Assembly (NCBI GenBank): GCA_042563095.1
Contig: JBHPMS010000003.1
Location: 1 to 53,687 of the forward strand
Direction: 5' to 3'
DNA: 53,687 nucleotides
Source of the DNA: Candidatus Margulisiibacteriota bacterium
GTDB lineage: Bacteria; Margulisbacteria; WOR-1; XYC2-FULL-46-14
Below, in pieces: positions 26,628 through 32,634 of the stretch. Under the pieces are notes generated by a model. That model was not told the DNA's origin. It saw only the letters and a list, made by a program, of their open reading frames with translations, and made no database searches. Every line of letters starts with the position of its first letter. Position 1 is the stretch's first letter. Position numbers and translations under genes: made by a program.

Positions 26628-27746
26628 TTATTTCACCTTCGGCCAGACCAGATCGTAATTCACACTGCGGCCCTGGCCGGGCAATTGGCGCAGGATTTTT
26701 TTGGCGAGCAAATCTGCAATTTCACGAAAGGCGGTGGCGCGGCTGATCTTGGCTATACTGACATACTTGCGAGTAGTCAAGCCGCCGATAAAATTGCCAG
26801 GTCCGGCTTCTAAAATCCGGTTTAAAACTTTCTTCTGATGCCCGTTAAGATCTGCCTGGGCATGCTTATTCCAAAAGTCAACCCGCATAAATATGTTATT
26901 AATAATGTTCCGGGAATGCTCAATCGAAGCAGTAATACATTTTATAAACCAGAGGAACCACTCTGTTGTGTCAGCCCGGCAGCATTGCACATCTTCAAGG
27001 ATTTGATAGTATTGGTTCCTTTTGCGCATTATTTCGGATGAGACGCTGTAAAACCTGACTTTTAAATTTTCATCCTGTGCCAGAGCCATGTCTGTTAAAG
27101 CCCTGGCCAAACGGCCGTTGCCGTCTTCGTAAGGGTGAATTGTTAAAAAACGTAAGTGTGCTGCTGCCGCGCGCAGTACGCCGTCCATGCTCCCGGATGA
27201 TGAATTCCACCATCTTATAAAAAGACGCATTTCCTCACTTAGCTGCTTTTTTGGAACAGCTTCGAAATGAACCTTCTCCTTTCCGATCGGCCCCGAAACT
27301 ATCTGCATCGGTTCATGTCCACGCAGTTTTCCGGCCGCTATTTTACTCAAGCCTGAATATCCGGCAGGAAAGAGCGCCGCCTGCCAACCGTTAAGCCGCG
27401 ATAGCGTTAAAGGTTTATTGTGAAAACGAACAGCCCCCAATAAAACATCCACCAGGCCATCAACTTTCCTGTCGTGGGATCCAACACCGCGCGGCAAACC
27501 GAGTCTTACCGCCACTGACGACCGAACAGTATTTTGGTTAAGTTTTTGTCCTTCGATTTCTGCAGTCCGGATGGCTTCTTCTACCAAAACAGCCCCCTGT
27601 GCTTCTGTTTCAAGCTTAATATCAAGAGAGGCGATGCGCCCCAATAATTTTCCCTGTATGACCCGTAAATGGCTTAACGGTTCGAGCATAATACTGTCGT
27701 CATATTTAAAATCAAACCAGTTGTTACGCTGCCAGAGGTATTTCAT
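26628..27746 (-). CDS. Fic family protein (DUF4172-type N-terminus, C-terminal HTH)
   Basis: HPYEDGNGRLAR Fic motif; N-terminal inhibitory-type TAEIEG motif. Confidence 0.92.
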   Translation of the reverse strand: MKYLWQRNNWFDFKYDDSIMLEPLSHLRVIQGKLLGRIASLDIKLETEAQGAVLVEEAIRTAEIEGQKLNQNTVRSSVAVRLGLPRGVGSHDRKVDGLVDVLLGAVRFHNKPLTLSRLNGWQAALFPAGYSGLSKIAAGKLRGHEPMQIVSGPIGKEKVHFEAVPKKQLSEEMRLFIRWWNSSSGSMDGVLRAAAAHLRFLTIHPYEDGNGRLARALTDMALAQDENLKVRFYSVSSEIMRKRNQYYQILEDVQCCRADTTEWFLWFIKCITASIEHSRNIINNIFMRVDFWNKHAQADLNGHQKKVLNRILEAGPGNFIGGLTTRKYVSIAKISRATAFREIADLLAKKILRQLPGQGRSVNYDLVWPKVK

Positions 27747-27883
27747 GCATTCTCCTCATGAGGCGATTAGGGGTATTAATCGCTTCACTATTTGATACAA
27801 TTATATAACGGTGTAAGTTGGACAGTCAAGCATCTTTTTGGAGGAAGCCTTTACGAATCCTTAACGATATGTTAAAATAAAAT

Positions 27884-28306
27884 ATGTTGTCCTCCCGCCA
27901 GCGTGAAATTTTAGATTTATTAAAACAGCACCAATATTTGCCAGGCCGAGAACTGCAGAAAACCTTAAAAATATCCCGCGCCCGGCTTAATCAATTGATT
28001 GTGCCGCTGATAAAAAAGAGATTAGTAAAAAGTGAAGGTTATGCCCGCGCTACCAGATATCTAATCACCGACAAACGCACTTTTGAGCAGATTAACGCTG
28101 AAAACTGGAAGCTGAGAAATAAAGTTCGTGAGCTAGAAAATACCTTGGAAGACCGCAGGATAATTGAGCGGGCTAAAGAAATACTGATTGCTGAGTTTGA
28201 TATTTTACCGACCGAAGCGTATCGAAAAATGCAGGAGCAGAGCATGGATTCTGGACGTTCAATGCGCAAAATCGCGGATAGAATTTTATCTGCTTATGAA
28301 GTTTAA
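27884..28306 (+). CDS. Winged-HTH plus ANTAR RNA-binding domain fusion
   Basis: N-terminal RQREILDLL...ELQKTLKISRARLNQLIVPLIKKRLVKSEG; coiled coil; RRIIERAKEILIAEF...EAYRKMQEQSM...KIADRIL (ANTAR). Confidence 0.85.
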   Translation: MLSSRQREILDLLKQHQYLPGRELQKTLKISRARLNQLIVPLIKKRLVKSEGYARATRYLITDKRTFEQINAENWKLRNKVRELENTLEDRRIIERAKEILIAEFDILPTEAYRKMQEQSMDSGRSMRKIADRILSAYEV

Positions 28307-28307
28307 A

Positions 28308-28336
28308 TTGAAGCGCAAGCAATAAAATGGTATAAT
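28308..28336 (+). promoter_or_regulatory. Sigma70 promoter upstream of carA
   Basis: TTGAAG-17 bp-TATAAT. Confidence 0.7.
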
Positions 28337-28351
28337 AGGTCAAAAGACAGG

Positions 28352-28376
28352 GACGTCGCAAGACGTCTTTTTTTTT
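28352..28376 (+). terminator. Intrinsic terminator in the carA leader (attenuator)
   Basis: GACGTC-GCAA-GACGTC hairpin followed by T9, between the promoter and the carA RBS. Confidence 0.8.
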
Positions 28377-28400
28377 ATCCTAAGCAAGGAGGAAAGTAAA

Positions 28401-29411
28401 ATGAAAGCAGTCTTAGCATTAGAAGATGGGACCATATTTGAAGGAAAATCTTTTGGGGCAGAGGGAGAGGCATTGGGAGAAATAGTTTTTAATACCCAGG
28501 TTTTTGGTTACCAGGAAATCTTAACTGATCCAGCCTATGGTGGAAAGCTGGTTACGATGGGCTATCCGCAAATCGGGAATGTTGGTATTAATGATAAATC
28601 TTTTGAATCTGATTCTGCCCACGCTAGAGCTCTGGTCATAAAAGAATACAGCCGGATCTATAGTAACTGGCAGGCGACCGGGTCACTTGCAGATTTTATG
28701 AAAAAACATAAAGTTGTAGGGATCGAAGGAATTGATACACGAGCTTTAACGACACATATCAGAGATAATTGGGAGATGAAGGCTATAGTGTCGACCAAGG
28801 ATTTTGATAAAGATTCTTTGGTGGAAAAAGCTAAACAATTCGAACTTCAAACTGCAAACCTCAAATCTCAAAACAAATCAAAAACTCCAAATTCTAAATC
28901 CAAAACCATAATAATAGATTTAGGAGTTAATAATAGTACCCTGGCAAGATATGAAGGAGCAAAAGTTGTGTCTTCTGCTATAAAAGCGGAAAAGATTTTG
29001 GATGGTAAGCCGAAACAGGTGGTTATTTCTTCTGGGCCGGTAGATCCCAGGAAATTAGATGGATTAGTTGAAGAAGTTAAAAAACTGATCGATAAAGTTC
29101 CTATCTATGGAATACAGAATGGTGCCTGTGTCCTGGCTTTGGCACTCGCTTGCCAGGTACATAAGATGAAGGTTGGGCATCATGGAGTAAATCAGCCGGT
29201 AGTTGATCCGAAAACCGGTCGCGGCGAGATTTCAATGCAGAACCACAGTTATGGGATCAAGGAAGTGCCTAAAAGTATTAAAATAGTCCATGTTAATTTG
29301 AATGATAAGACCATTGAAAGGTTTGAGACCAAAGATGGGGCCTGTGTCGGCACACTCTATTTTCCAATCGATGAACGGGGCAAGTTAGATAAAGGATACA
29401 GGAGGGTATAA
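28401..29411 (+). CDS. carA: Carbamoyl-phosphate synthase small subunit with degenerate glutaminase site
   Basis: LALEDGTIFEG, GEIVFNT, YQEILTDPAY, GIDTRALT. GICLG is GIQNG here and QYHPE is LYFPI. Confidence 0.9.
   Translation: MKAVLALEDGTIFEGKSFGAEGEALGEIVFNTQVFGYQEILTDPAYGGKLVTMGYPQIGNVGINDKSFESDSAHARALVIKEYSRIYSNWQATGSLADFMKKHKVVGIEGIDTRALTTHIRDNWEMKAIVSTKDFDKDSLVEKAKQFELQTANLKSQNKSKTPNSKSKTIIIDLGVNNSTLARYEGAKVVSSAIKAEKILDGKPKQVVISSGPVDPRKLDGLVEEVKKLIDKVPIYGIQNGACVLALALACQVHKMKVGHHGVNQPVVDPKTGRGEISMQNHSYGIKEVPKSIKIVHVNLNDKTIERFETKDGACVGTLYFPIDERGKLDKGYRRV
28845..28905. repeat. Degenerate heptamer array in the carA interdomain linker
   Basis: CTTCAAA CTGCAAA CCTCAAA TCTCAAA ... CTCCAAA TTCTAAA TCCAAAA. 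Confidence 0.75.
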
Positions 29412-29412
29412 C

Positions 29413-32400
29413 GTGCCAAAAAGAACAGACATAAAAAAGATCCTAATCATCAGTTCCGGACCAATTGTGATCGGACAGGCGTGTGAGTTTGATTATTCTG
29501 GATCGCAGGCCTGCAAAGCTTTGCGGGAGGAAGGGTATGAGACGGTTTTGATCAATTCAAATCCAGCAACGATTATGACCGATCCGGGGATGGCGGATCG
29601 GACTTATATTGAACCGCTCGAACCAGAATTTATAGAAAAGATTATTATAAAAGAAAAACCGGATGCTCTCCTTCCAACTTTGGGCGGCCAGACCGGACTT
29701 AACATGGGTTTTTTTCTTTCTAAAGCAGGAATTCTACAAAAATACGGGGTAGAAATTATTGGTGCTGATGCTAAAGCAATTGAGCGGGCCGAAGACCGGG
29801 AGAAATTTAAAGAGACGATGGCCAGTATCGGTTTGGATGTTCCAGAATCAGGAACTGTAAATTCAGTTGAGGACGGATTAGTTCTGGGTGAAAAGATCGG
29901 TTTTCCAATTATTCTACGGCCTGCTTTTACTATGGGGGGGGCGGGAGGATCATGTGTCTATAATGTAGATGAATTAAAGAAGGCTTTAGAATATGCCTTA
30001 GAGGTTTCCCCGCTTAAACAGGTTTTAGTTGAAAAGTCTGTTCTTGGCTGGAAAGAGGTAGAGTTCGAAGTTATCCGTGATTGTAAGGATAATGTAATCA
30101 TTGTAACCTCAATGGAAAATATTGATGCGATGGGCGTACATACTGGTGATTCTATTGTAGTTGCTCCCGCTCAGACAATAACTACAGAAGAATTTTTTGA
30201 ATTGGAGAACTGGTGTAAAAAAATTATCCGCGCAGTTGGAATTAATGGTGGCGGCACCAATATCCAGTTCGCAGTGAATCCGGAGAATGGGAAGATCGTA
30301 ATTATTGAGATCAATCCTCGGGTTTCTCGCTCCTCTGCCTTAGCCTCCAAAGCCACCGGCTTCCCAATCGCCCGGGTGGCAGCAAAGCTGGCAATCGGTT
30401 TAAGTTTGGATGAAATAGTAAACCAGGTAACCGGAAAGACCTATACTTATTTTGAACCGACGGTTGATTACTGTGTTTTCAAAGTATGCCGTTTTACTTT
30501 TGAAAAATTCCCGGATGCAGATCCGATTTTAACCACCTCGATGAAAGCAGTAGGAGAGGCAATGTCGATCGGCAGAAACTATAAAGAGTCATTACAAAAA
30601 GGCATTCGTTCGCTTGAATACCGTCGTTTTGGCCTGGGGGCGGATGGCCGTGATGTTCCAGATGAACTTTCAAAAGACCCTGAACTGGTAAAGCAGAAAC
30701 TGGTTTATCCAAATGCTGATCGGATCTTCTGGGTGCGTTACGCGATAAAGAATGGAATGAGTAACCAAGAAATCTTTGAACATTCAAAAATGGATCCGTG
30801 GTTTGTTGACCAGATGCGCCAGATTGTAGAGGTAGAGGAGGAGGTAGTAAAGTATAAGCTTTCAACCATTCCAGATGCGGTTATGTATAAAGCTAAAGAT
30901 ACCGGTTTTTCTGATGTGCAAATTGCGCATCTTGTAAAATCTGACGAGGTTAAAGTATATAACCACCGTAAAAAGAAAGGGATCATGCCCGGTTATAAAT
31001 TAGTTGATACCTGTGGAGGTGAAGTTGATCCAATGAAACCGTATTTTTATTCTACTTATAATAATTCCAAAGATGAAAGCCGTGCAACGGATAAGAAAAA
31101 GGTGATGGTATTAGGAGGGGGTCCCAACCGGATTGGGCAGGGGATCGAATTTGATTACTGTTGCTGTCATGCTTCGTTTGCCCTAAAAGAAGAAGGCTAT
31201 GAAGCGATCATGGTCAATTCAAATCCAGAAACGGTTTCGACCGACTTTGATACTTCTGACCGGCTCTATTTTGAACCGTTAACCCGCGAAGATGTTTTGC
31301 ATATTGTTGAAAAGGAAAAACCGTTCGGTGTGATTGTCCAATTCGGCGGGCAGACCCCGCTTAATATTGCTCACCAATTAGAAGAAGCGGGTGTTCCGAT
31401 TTTAGGAACCTCGGTTGAATCAATTGACCGTTCCGAGGATCGGAAAAAATTCCAGTCTTTGTTAAAAAAACTTAAACTAACTCAACCAGCTAACGATACA
31501 GCAATTTCTTTCGCAGAAGCAAAAAAGGTTGCGGACCAGATCGGTTATCCGGTAGTTGTTCGTCCTTCTTATGTTTTAGGCGGCCGCGCGATGAAAATTG
31601 TTTATGACGAGGGGGATCTAGAAGAGTATATGCAAAAAGCAGTAATTGCATCCCCGGACCGTCCAATTTTGATCGATAAATTCCTGGAAGATGCGGTTGA
31701 AATTGATGTTGATTGTGTTTCTGATGGTGAAGAGTCGATGGTTTGCGGGATTATGGAGCATATCGAAGAAGCCGGAATCCACTCCGGTGACTCAGCCTGT
31801 GTTATTCCTAGTTTCTCACTTTCAAAATCAATGATCAAAGAACTAAAAGAAGCAAGTTATGCACTCGCAAAAGAATTAAAAGTTAAAGGATTGATGAATA
31901 TCCAGTTTGCAGTAAAAGGGAGCAAACTTTATGTTTTAGAAGTTAATCCACGGGCATCGCGTACGATTCCGTATGTTAGTAAAGCAACTGGAATTCCGTG
32001 GGCCAATATTGCAACCAAAGCGATGCTGGGTACTTCTCTGAAAGAATTAGGCGCTAAGGAATTTGTCCCGGAGCATTTTTCGGTGAAAGAAGCAGTTTTC
32101 CCCTTTAACCGTTTCCACGGAGTTGATGCGATTTTGGGTCCGGAAATGAAATCAACCGGCGAGGTAATGGGGATTGATGCTGATCTCGGGATTGCCTACA
32201 TGAAAGCGCAGATTGCGGCCGGGCAAAAACTTCCTTTGGAAGGAAGAATTTTTGTTTCTGTAAATGATCGGGATAAACGCCGGATTGTTGATGTTGCCAA
32301 GCGGATTGCTGCTTTAGGATATTCAATTGTTTCAACCGCCGGGACGGCGGCAGTATTGCGCAAGAACGGTTTAGAGGTTGAAGAAGTAGCCAAATTAGGA

Positions 32401-32634
32401 GAAGGGCGCCCGGACGTCGTAGATCTGATTAAAAATGGGAAGATTCAACTATTAATAAATACGCCCGGAGATAAAAGGACCAAGGTTGACGAAACCAAAA
32501 TCCGCTCTGGTGCAATCATGCATATGATACCGATTGTCACTACACTTGCCGGGGCACGGGCAACGGTGAACGGACTTGAGGCCGCAAAGAAGAAAGGCTT
32601 TAAAGTAAAAGCCTTGCAGGATTACCATAAGTAA
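29413..32634 (+). CDS. carB: Carbamoyl-phosphate synthase large subunit
   Basis: GPIVIGQACEFDYSG, GVHTGDS, NRIGQGIEFDY, GIHSGDS, EMKSTGEVMG; 1073 aa, full length. Confidence 0.98.
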   Translation: MPKRTDIKKILIISSGPIVIGQACEFDYSGSQACKALREEGYETVLINSNPATIMTDPGMADRTYIEPLEPEFIEKIIIKEKPDALLPTLGGQTGLNMGFFLSKAGILQKYGVEIIGADAKAIERAEDREKFKETMASIGLDVPESGTVNSVEDGLVLGEKIGFPIILRPAFTMGGAGGSCVYNVDELKKALEYALEVSPLKQVLVEKSVLGWKEVEFEVIRDCKDNVIIVTSMENIDAMGVHTGDSIVVAPAQTITTEEFFELENWCKKIIRAVGINGGGTNIQFAVNPENGKIVIIEINPRVSRSSALASKATGFPIARVAAKLAIGLSLDEIVNQVTGKTYTYFEPTVDYCVFKVCRFTFEKFPDADPILTTSMKAVGEAMSIGRNYKESLQKGIRSLEYRRFGLGADGRDVPDELSKDPELVKQKLVYPNADRIFWVRYAIKNGMSNQEIFEHSKMDPWFVDQMRQIVEVEEEVVKYKLSTIPDAVMYKAKDTGFSDVQIAHLVKSDEVKVYNHRKKKGIMPGYKLVDTCGGEVDPMKPYFYSTYNNSKDESRATDKKKVMVLGGGPNRIGQGIEFDYCCCHASFALKEEGYEAIMVNSNPETVSTDFDTSDRLYFEPLTREDVLHIVEKEKPFGVIVQFGGQTPLNIAHQLEEAGVPILGTSVESIDRSEDRKKFQSLLKKLKLTQPANDTAISFAEAKKVADQIGYPVVVRPSYVLGGRAMKIVYDEGDLEEYMQKAVIASPDRPILIDKFLEDAVEIDVDCVSDGEESMVCGIMEHIEEAGIHSGDSACVIPSFSLSKSMIKELKEASYALAKELKVKGLMNIQFAVKGSKLYVLEVNPRASRTIPYVSKATGIPWANIATKAMLGTSLKELGAKEFVPEHFSVKEAVFPFNRFHGVDAILGPEMKSTGEVMGIDADLGIAYMKAQIAAGQKLPLEGRIFVSVNDRDKRRIVDVAKRIAALGYSIVSTAGTAAVLRKNGLEVEEVAKLGEGRPDVVDLIKNGKIQLLINTPGDKRTKVDETKIRSGAIMHMIPIVTTLAGARATVNGLEAAKKKGFKVKALQDYHK

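Follow-up and report, generated by a model that had tools for sequence, protein, structure and literature searches.

ANTAR antiterminators have been described as proteins that are coupled to a sensor (a REC, GAF, PAS or NIT domain) and require a pair of hexaloop hairpins. In the case of EutV both hairpins are necessary (Ramesh 2012, PMC3369931); an ANTAR dimer was later found to contact one hexaloop at a time, and the minimal site was redefined as a single hexaloop, with such sites expected mainly where polymerase sets no time limit (Walshe 2022, PMC8934654). Here we analyse a stretch of 53,687 nucleotides (nt), hereafter the window, from contig JBHPMS010000003.1 of assembly GCA_042563095.1 (Candidatus Margulisiibacteriota bacterium, WOR-1). 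It contains a three-gene cassette composed of a regulator gene, coding for a fusion of a winged helix to an ANTAR domain, and of carA' and carB', coding for the subunits of a carbamoyl-phosphate synthetase (CPS). From sequence comparisons we propose, with a probability of roughly 0.77, that the regulator is a single-hexaloop ANTAR antiterminator of the neighbouring carA'B'. We found no description in the literature of winged-helix ANTAR proteins or of ANTAR control of carAB.

The carA' leader and its linkage to the fusion gene

An earlier reading of this DNA, designated here the original prediction, had placed a promoter, a mini-hairpin of the ANTAR type, a terminator and the carA ribosome binding site between the regulator gene and carA'. 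All four are present, as follows:

28308–28336, + strand: promoter of carA'B', TTGAAG-17-TG-extended TATAAT (promoter scan, 10 of 12 consensus positions), beginning 1 nt past the regulator stop codon
28346–28357, + strand: putative antiterminator mini-hairpin GAC-AGGGAC-GUC, predicted site of the ANTAR dimer, 9 bases past the -10 box
28349–28376, + strand: intrinsic terminator, AGGGACGUC-GCAA-GACGUCUUU with a U run behind it and a 5′ arm that overlaps the mini-hairpin
28388–28392, + strand: Shine-Dalgarno site of carA', GGAGG (from the sequence), with the carA' ATG at 28401

Transcription of carA'B' would start at around 28343. The mini-hairpin lies in the leader RNA stretch 5′-AAAGACAGGGACGUCGCAA and is made up of GAC (28346–28348), the loop AGGGAC (28349–28354, with A1 at 28349 and G4 at 28352) and GTC (28355–28357). 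The terminator hairpin, AGGGACGTC-GCAA-GACGTCTTT, is followed by nine T up to 28376 and has a folding energy of -12.8 kcal/mol (z -4.7), whereas estimates for the mini-hairpin alone are only -0.7 to -2.1 or -0.7 to -2.8 kcal/mol; termination would therefore be the default state. As originally proposed, both structures are mutually exclusive, because loop positions 4–6 and the 3′ stem of the mini-hairpin constitute the six-base GC core of the terminator 5′ arm. Searches against Rfam gave no match to the leader at gathering or permissive thresholds, with no PyrR site, riboswitch or known leader.

The regulators form a tight family of around 100 sequences (54–75 % identity), and all the named ones are from Margulisbacteria or Saganbacteria. 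When 1.84 billion cluster representatives were searched exhaustively with HMMER, both domains were spanned only by two clusters of full length and by two fragments, the remaining matches being to the ANTAR part alone or to the winged helix alone; more distant candidate fusions were rejected as GAF-ANTAR or REC-ANTAR proteins, or as fragments. A full-length orthologue of the fusion is present in 16 of the 146 genomes of the phylum, always directly upstream of carA-carB and on the same strand (16/16), and there are 24 more metagenome loci in which it is full-length or nearly so, with the same arrangement in the 22 that reach past the intergenic region. The linkage of fusion, carAB and leader on which the original prediction depended is thus found in 16 genomes and 22 metagenome contigs.

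The order of elements in the intergenic region is constant: the stop codon, a TTGA -35 box (at times within the end of the coding sequence), TATAAT or TAAAAT; then come 8–23 nt, GRY-ARRGRC-GYY, the remaining part of a GC-rich hairpin, a run of T, a Shine-Dalgarno site and carA. Among the 34 distinct leaders that were compared, the -10 box is kept in all and the -35 TTGA, at its usual spacing, in most; the hairpin and T run are present in every one of them, with folding energies of -11 to -18.7 kcal/mol. In each of the 16 fusion genomes, a single match to GRYARRGRCGYY-N6-16-TTTTTT forms a hairpin, and it is invariably the one at the carA' leader. In the 130 genomes of the phylum without the fusion there are scattered matches, at about the level of a reversed-pattern control, and none of them forms a hairpin. 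With one motif per genome, the neighbouring operon would appear to be the regulator's only target.

Operons carAB and pyr are classically under control sensitive to uridine or cytidine triphosphate (UTP, CTP), as in Bacillus subtilis pyrG and in Escherichia coli pyrBI and carAB P1. This precedent, the extremely short leader, with a start within a few nt of the hairpin, and the lack of a sensor domain in the regulator would fit a real attenuator that is relieved by other means, be it nucleotide-sensitive initiation, reiterative transcription or an unlinked factor, the ANTAR protein acting elsewhere. Nevertheless, the initially transcribed stretch varies both in sequence and in length (8–23 nt) and contains no conserved U or G run, no Rfam family matches, PyrR included, and motif and fusion co-occur perfectly, with a single site per genome; besides, the covariation of the upstream triplet, described next, has no role in such a scheme. 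We thus consider relief by other means unlikely. Reiterative transcription of the pyrG or pyrBI type was rejected, there being no conserved homopolymer at the start.

Covariation in the stem of the mini-hairpin

The triplets flanking the loop are GGC/GCC in 21 leaders, GAC/GTC in nine, GGT/GCC in two and GGC/GCT in two, without a single mismatch, and the loop conforms to ARRGRC in all 34, with A1, G4 and C6 invariant. The stem is exactly 3 base pairs (bp) long and accumulates nine double changes and four G·U pairs. All alignment cells are paired (100 %), compared to 26–67 % when the 3′ partner is slid by 1–3 columns, and none of 500 shuffles matched the observed pairing or covariation score. 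The covariance analysis of carA leaders that had been suggested as a check of the antitermination model was therefore favourable: 34 of 34 stems pair, with compensatory changes between A-U and G-C as well as G·U pairs.

On a tree built from a concatenation of the two proteins, regulator and CarA, the stem switches between A-U and G-C seven times on the best topology, and at least three of these switches are forced by well-supported branches; even sister leaders can differ (GGU/GCC in L002, GAC/GUC in L003). The independent pairs covary in 7/7 cases on the best tree and in 3/3 when only supported branches are counted.

Several details bear on the nature of this pairing. In the four wobble leaders the stem is held by G·U, a pairing available on the sense strand only, as expected of RNA and not of a DNA palindrome. 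In non-palindromic stems (GGC-AAAGAC-GCC, GAC-AAAGGC-GUC) the upstream base tracks its proposed partner and not the adjacent triplet. Additionally, within the terminator the stem U of leaders L011 and L044 would be limited to a G·U wobble and that of L012 would be mismatched; in the mini-hairpin it is in a Watson-Crick pair. These details are better explained by pairing in the RNA than by a palindrome in the DNA or by a side effect of the terminator.

The regulator is an ANTAR protein with the RNA-contact residues of EutV

The regulator gene and its encoded domains were delimited as follows:

27884–28306, + strand: winged-helix and ANTAR regulator gene, open reading frame of 140 amino acids, with the start set at ATG 27884 by the conserved N-terminus
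27884–28069, + strand: winged helix-turn-helix domain, residues 1–62 (AlphaFold2, Foldseek and invariant columns)
28082–28288, + strand: coiled-coil-type helix 67–105 running into the ANTAR three-helix bundle, with R91, K98, Y113 and M121 (Pfam, AlphaFold2 and Foldseek)
27873–27878, + strand: -10 box TAAAAT of the regulator's own promoter (promoter scan, TTTACG-17-TAAAAT), 5 nt before the ATG

We took ATG 27884 as the start because the N-terminus, MLxxRQxEIL, is conserved and there is a -10 box 5 nt upstream; the gene call (P0001) is a product of 122 amino acids starting at the TTG of codon 19. The aligned upstream regions of the orthologues keep the same spacing of 5–8 nt from -10 box to ATG, which suggests that the regulator mRNA is leaderless, or nearly so, and without a Shine-Dalgarno site.

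The Pfam ANTAR profile (PF03861) matches residues 83–135 over profile positions 2–54 of 54 (E 8.6e-17; 61.1 bits, with a cut-off of 27.3). Matches of the N-terminal part to HTH_11, HTH_24 and MarR_2 were all below their cut-offs, and the Pfam profile search revealed no sensor or ligand-binding domain. An AlphaFold2 model built on 36 family members (mean predicted local distance difference test score, pLDDT, of 90) contains a winged helix of the classical type (helices 4–15, 21–28 and 32–44, β-wing 48–61), a 39-residue helix (67–105) and helices 109–123 and 127–138. In Foldseek searches the first part resembled MarR, AdcR, ZitR, SmtB and AspA, and the second EutV (6WW6, 6WSH); likewise, the phmmer matches of the ANTAR part included EutV, Rv1626 and NasR.

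In the structure of EutV with RNA, Arg142 and Lys149 touch G4 of the hexaloop, Tyr164 stacks on the flipped-out G4 and Met172 is an obligatory hydrophobic plug (PMC8934654). An ungapped alignment equates these four residues (R142, K149, Y164 and M172) with R91, K98, Y113 and M121 of the regulator, which are invariant across the 36 family members; EutV Glu160 (E160) is replaced by P109. By its profile match, predicted fold and contact residues, the regulator is a bona fide member of the ANTAR family. The stem of the carA' leader agrees with the accepted criterion for ANTAR RNAs in actinobacteria, a stem of at least 3 bp (PMC8164766).

The winged helix and tandem repeats in the regulator promoter

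The promoter of the regulator gene overlaps a candidate operator for the winged helix:

27850–27868, + strand: tandem direct repeat with a period of 11 nt, TTTACGAAT at 27850–27858 and TTAACGAT at 27861–27868

The family consensus of the repeat pair is CTTGACGATTnC-TTGACGAT, of which the window holds a degenerate copy. In the aligned upstream regions the repeat reads CTTGACGATTnC-TTGACGATWnn, with TTGACGATTCCTTGACGAT as its tandem form. Nearly every locus has two (once three) tandem units upstream of the regulator, followed by TATAAT and, 5–8 nt on, by the ATG. The first unit coincides in most loci with the -35 box of the regulator promoter, the second lying in the spacer; the first unit is also the -35 box in the window, and in one subclade the pair is situated just upstream of another -35 box. 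In 14 of the 16 genomes the exact sequence TTKACRATNNNTTKACRAT immediately precedes the fusion gene. The pair in the window is the only one with 11-nt spacing in its 53.7 kb, single TTDACGAW sites occurring at chance frequency.

Other matches to TTKACRATNNNTTKACRAT in the phylum include several directly before Fic genes whose products have a homologous winged helix (G005:C69:7034, G083:C8:88842 and G126:C3:27262). The 60 N-terminal residues of the regulator are 45–55 % identical to the C-terminal winged helix of these Fic proteins of around 340 amino acids from the same phylum (55 % identity with E 2e-18 for one of them). Proteins of around 345 amino acids with the same domain as the N-terminus of the regulator were first taken for HrcA, a guess that was rejected when they proved to be Fic proteins with a C-terminal winged helix. 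Among the Fic loci (L018, L019–L025 and L027–L030), the 12 that could be oriented all have two to three tandem 11-nt repeats of the CTTGAC type at the same position. These are of the form CTTGAC(GAT/GCA/GCT/ACA), just before a -10 box, with the ATG 6–10 nt past it. Their 3′ half differs between loci, and from sequence it might track the recognition helix.

Since this winged-helix subtype and the promoter repeat co-occur in two unrelated gene families, DNA binding with autoregulation, most likely through the tandem TTGACGAT repeats, is the function of the domain that we somewhat favour. Across the family, the residues R32, R34 and Q37 of the recognition helix and G52, A54-R55-A56-T57 and Y59 of the wing are invariant. 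A domain conserved to this degree could, in principle, be all that acts on the leader: its operator would be GRC-N6-GYC, palindromic in DNA in 30 of the 34 leaders, or else the terminator's inverted repeat, and the bound protein would be a roadblock or repressor just past the start site. We hold this action through DNA only to be highly improbable. The four remaining leaders depend on G·U for their pairing, and in DNA this would be a mismatch; the stems of the terminators, despite changes in sequence and in the length of the loop, retain their pairing and T run, as RNA hairpins do. Moreover, the repeats of the regulator's own promoter, common to Fic genes with the homologous winged helix, make a far better candidate operator, and the RNA-contact residues of the ANTAR domain are invariant.

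The carA' promoter has a spacer element of its own in about one third of the leaders, YTGAK, located exactly 11 nt past the -35 TTGA (e.g., TTGATCCGGGCTTGATTTTTTGATATAAT). This element is not present in the carA' promoter of the window; it resembles the repeat architecture of the regulator promoter and may be a weak second operator or a relic of a promoter duplication.

A single hexaloop and the case against antitermination

The caveat of the original prediction, that only one of the usual two hairpins could be found, holds for all 34 leaders: no conserved second A1/G4 hexaloop hairpin was found between the regulator stop codon and the motif, promoter region included. There is also no room for one in the transcript from the carA' promoter, because only 8–23 nt separate the -10 box from the hairpin. 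From its sequence, the carA' leader fits only the minimal definition of a single hexaloop, and in a co-transcriptional setting. It is this use of a single hexaloop under transcription that departs most from the known mechanism, and it is likewise the point of greatest uncertainty.

Single-hexaloop antitermination therefore has to be weighed against a series of adverse observations. The classical arrangement of two tandem hairpins with a linker of 2–25 nt (Ramesh 2012, Mehta 2021) is not found, and with only about 20 nt from hairpin to terminator the time pressure of a transcribing polymerase is present. As for the protein, no sensor or ligand site can be named in it, and the window's own copy of the candidate operator repeat is degenerate. 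As for the RNA, pairing inside the terminator and its U tract could also account for the conserved loop positions A1–A3 and G4–C6, which leaves the upstream triplet as the only independent evidence, and double changes affect just one of its three pairs. Supported branches alone yield three independent switches, for which the sign test is underpowered (p = 0.25), and the statistical case therefore rests on the complete absence of intermediates. Lastly, in a scan of the own genome (an assembly of 1.0 Mb), a hexaloop with A1 and G4 on a 3-bp stem overlapped 2 of 51 stringent terminators, close to a rough chance estimate of about 3–4 % of terminators. The second of these terminators sits within a gene, and no other intergenic site was found. 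The mini-hairpin is thus not above chance in this sequence alone, and its reality rests on the comparative data.

That chance level would also agree with a leader devoid of regulation, in which the hairpin is a leaky terminator of the regulator gene and the 3-bp complementarity a by-product of near-palindromic GRCGYC stems; in fact, many stems are palindromic hexamers, in which the upstream GRC is often identical to the arm's first half. However, a promoter lies between stop codon and terminator at all loci, so that its transcripts must cross the terminator, the upstream triplet is never less than 8 nt from the -10 box and is hence always transcribed, and in the non-palindromic stems the upstream base follows its pairing partner. 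These observations make a leader without regulatory function very unlikely.

Proposed mechanism

From sequence and structure comparisons we infer RNA binding, read-through, dimerisation and DNA binding, and propose the following course of events for antitermination by the regulator. The strong promoter right behind the regulator gene would start the carA'B' transcript at the position given above, and in the absence of protein the first 35 nt would fold into the terminator, with its nine U, stopping transcription before carA'. A dimer of the regulator, joined by the long helix, would grip the 12-nt hairpin as it leaves the polymerase; by homology to EutV, G4 would stack on Y113 and be contacted by R91 and K98, with M121 as the plug. 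The bound mini-hairpin would sequester the GC core of the terminator 5′ arm, leading to read-through. The winged helix, in turn, would bind the tandem repeats over the -35 box and spacer of its own promoter, resulting in autoregulation.

Possible inputs to the system are a partner protein, as in AmiR/AmiC or NasT/NasS, the speed of elongation over the approximately 20 nt, and competition between DNA and RNA for the dimer. A tentative version, which we would not expect to hold in full, is that of a sensor-less dual binder: the winged helix on the repeats of its own promoter would fix the concentration of the protein, the ANTAR dimer would catch the one hexaloop at the 5′ end, and the signal would be either kinetic, through the time spent by polymerase over those 20 nt (nucleoside triphosphate supply or pausing), or a partitioning between DNA and RNA.

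The predicted target is a paralogue of carbamoyl-phosphate synthetase

The two genes downstream of the leader are:

28401–29411, + strand: carA', CPS small subunit (profile and alignment), with the Cys-His-Glu glutaminase triad gone
29413–32634, + strand: carB', CPS large subunit of 1073 amino acids, full length by profile and with all domains

CarA' scored 315.6 bits against TIGR01368 (cut-off 307.35). In an alignment to E. coli CarA (PDB 1C30), it has GIQNGAC in place of GICLGHQ, which holds the nucleophile Cys269. The whole triad, Cys269-His353-Glu355 in E. coli numbering, is absent from 25 of 25 full-length cassette CarA' proteins, with GIQNGAC and with LYFPIDE for QYHPEA; since these replacements are common to all copies, the loss is old and conserved. 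A canonical carA is also found in 12 of the 16 fusion genomes, 77–100 % identical to each other and 42–51 % to the cassette copy. Of the four genomes without it, three are 52–77 % complete and the fourth, G090, is 94 % complete. By sequence, the cassette CarA' is a paralogue and not the housekeeping enzyme. The proposal that an ANTAR protein controls carAB by antitermination thus gains linkage, co-occurrence and covariation, and has to be amended as to its target, a paralogue without the glutaminase triad instead of the housekeeping carAB.

Because the small subunit lacks the triad, CarA'B' is probably a second, ammonia-dependent CPS; by analogy, the matches in the CarA' alignment include PDB 5DOT, the ammonia-dependent CPS I, which also has a dead glutaminase domain. 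The canonical copy of the sister genome G143 keeps FGICLGHQ and QYHPEA intact. In that genome (L106 2563–3540, G143:C10), canonical carA adjoins a gene for an NrpR-type nitrogen repressor (Pfam NRD1_2, E 9.5e-85), and each of the two CPS systems may thus have a nitrogen-related regulator of its own. In two loci, L016 (G091:C83) and L009 (G115:C109), the canonical pair is immediately upstream on the same contig, in the order carA-carB-regulator-carA'-carB'. The linker of CarA' (28845–28905), between its N-terminal and amidotransferase-like domains, contains a low-complexity insertion rich in Lys, Ser and Asn, LKSQNKSKTPNSKSK.

Genes flanking the cassette

The identity of the gene upstream of the cassette varies, and an unrelated pseudouridine synthase is found downstream of carB'; with flanking genes varying among loci, there is no conserved partner gene linked to the cassette. 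In the window, the divergent neighbour (26628–27746, - strand) codes for a DUF4172-Fic protein of 372 amino acids. Its C-terminal DNA-binding-like domain (DIP2311-like_C, below the cut-off) is of another type than the winged helix of the regulator, and its promoter is near-consensus (TTGACT-18-TATAAT, 27829–27800).

Comparison with known systems

Control through a leader terminator, after initiation or coupled to it, is also the basis of E. coli carAB P1/P2 (PMC6245113), of PyrR attenuation and of Bacillus pyrG. Unlike these classical carAB and pyr systems, the cassette lacks a PyrR site, a run of U or G at the start site and any operator of the ArgR or PurR type; its putative effector is an ANTAR protein and its enzyme a paralogue devoid of the glutaminase triad. 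The winged helix shares its fold with repressors of the MarR/ArsR type, such as AdcR, ZitR and SmtB. Proteins like MarR bind inverted repeats and dimerise via flanking helices, whereas the candidate site of the regulator consists of units repeated directly every 11 nt, and its dimerisation would depend on the ANTAR coiled coil. The domain is also related to the winged helix of the Fic proteins, tandem TTGAC-type repeats being found in the promoters of both gene families; this link between a winged-helix subfamily and a repeat, which reaches beyond the regulator, is directly testable.

AmiR/AmiC from Pseudomonas aeruginosa, NasR from Klebsiella oxytoca and NasT/NasS are likewise ANTAR antiterminators of nitrogen-related operons, and the regulator is proposed to act in the manner of EutV, AmiR and NasR. 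AmiR and NasT, which carry no ligand-binding sensor and answer to a partner protein, are a possible model for a sensor-less regulator, although the N-terminal domains of AmiR, NasR and NasT are pseudo-receiver or NIT domains and not DNA-binding. For the uncultivated Margulisbacteria and Saganbacteria, the comparison points to a trait consisting of two CPS enzymes, one adjoining an NrpR-like gene and the other under putative ANTAR control.

Among the closest systems is that of EutV from Enterococcus faecalis (PDB 6WSH, 6WW6; PMC3369931, PMC8934654), with which the regulator shares the coiled-coil helix, the three-helix ANTAR bundle and the four RNA-contact residues. The RNAs are also alike, with an A1/G4 hexaloop on a short stem whose 3′ side overlaps the 5′ arm of the terminator. 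EutV has, however, a phosphorylatable REC sensor and needs two tandem hairpins for antitermination, whereas the regulator has a winged helix and no REC, and its system comprises a single hairpin, right at the 5′ end of the transcript, with one target in each genome and in another pathway. There are thus three departures from what is known: a winged helix in the place of the sensor, one 12-nt hairpin at the 5′ end, and a CPS paralogue without glutaminase triad as sole target. Should the version of a sensor-less dual binder hold, the regulator would be the first ANTAR protein to carry a DNA-binding domain and its leader the first natural ANTAR switch to operate co-transcriptionally with a single hexaloop, in control of a second CPS that is probably ammonia-dependent. 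A protein of 140 amino acids and a 35-nt leader would make a compact, orthogonal switch for study in vitro. They would also put the 2022 proposal that one hexaloop suffices to a minimal, natural test, with transcription imposing its time pressure.

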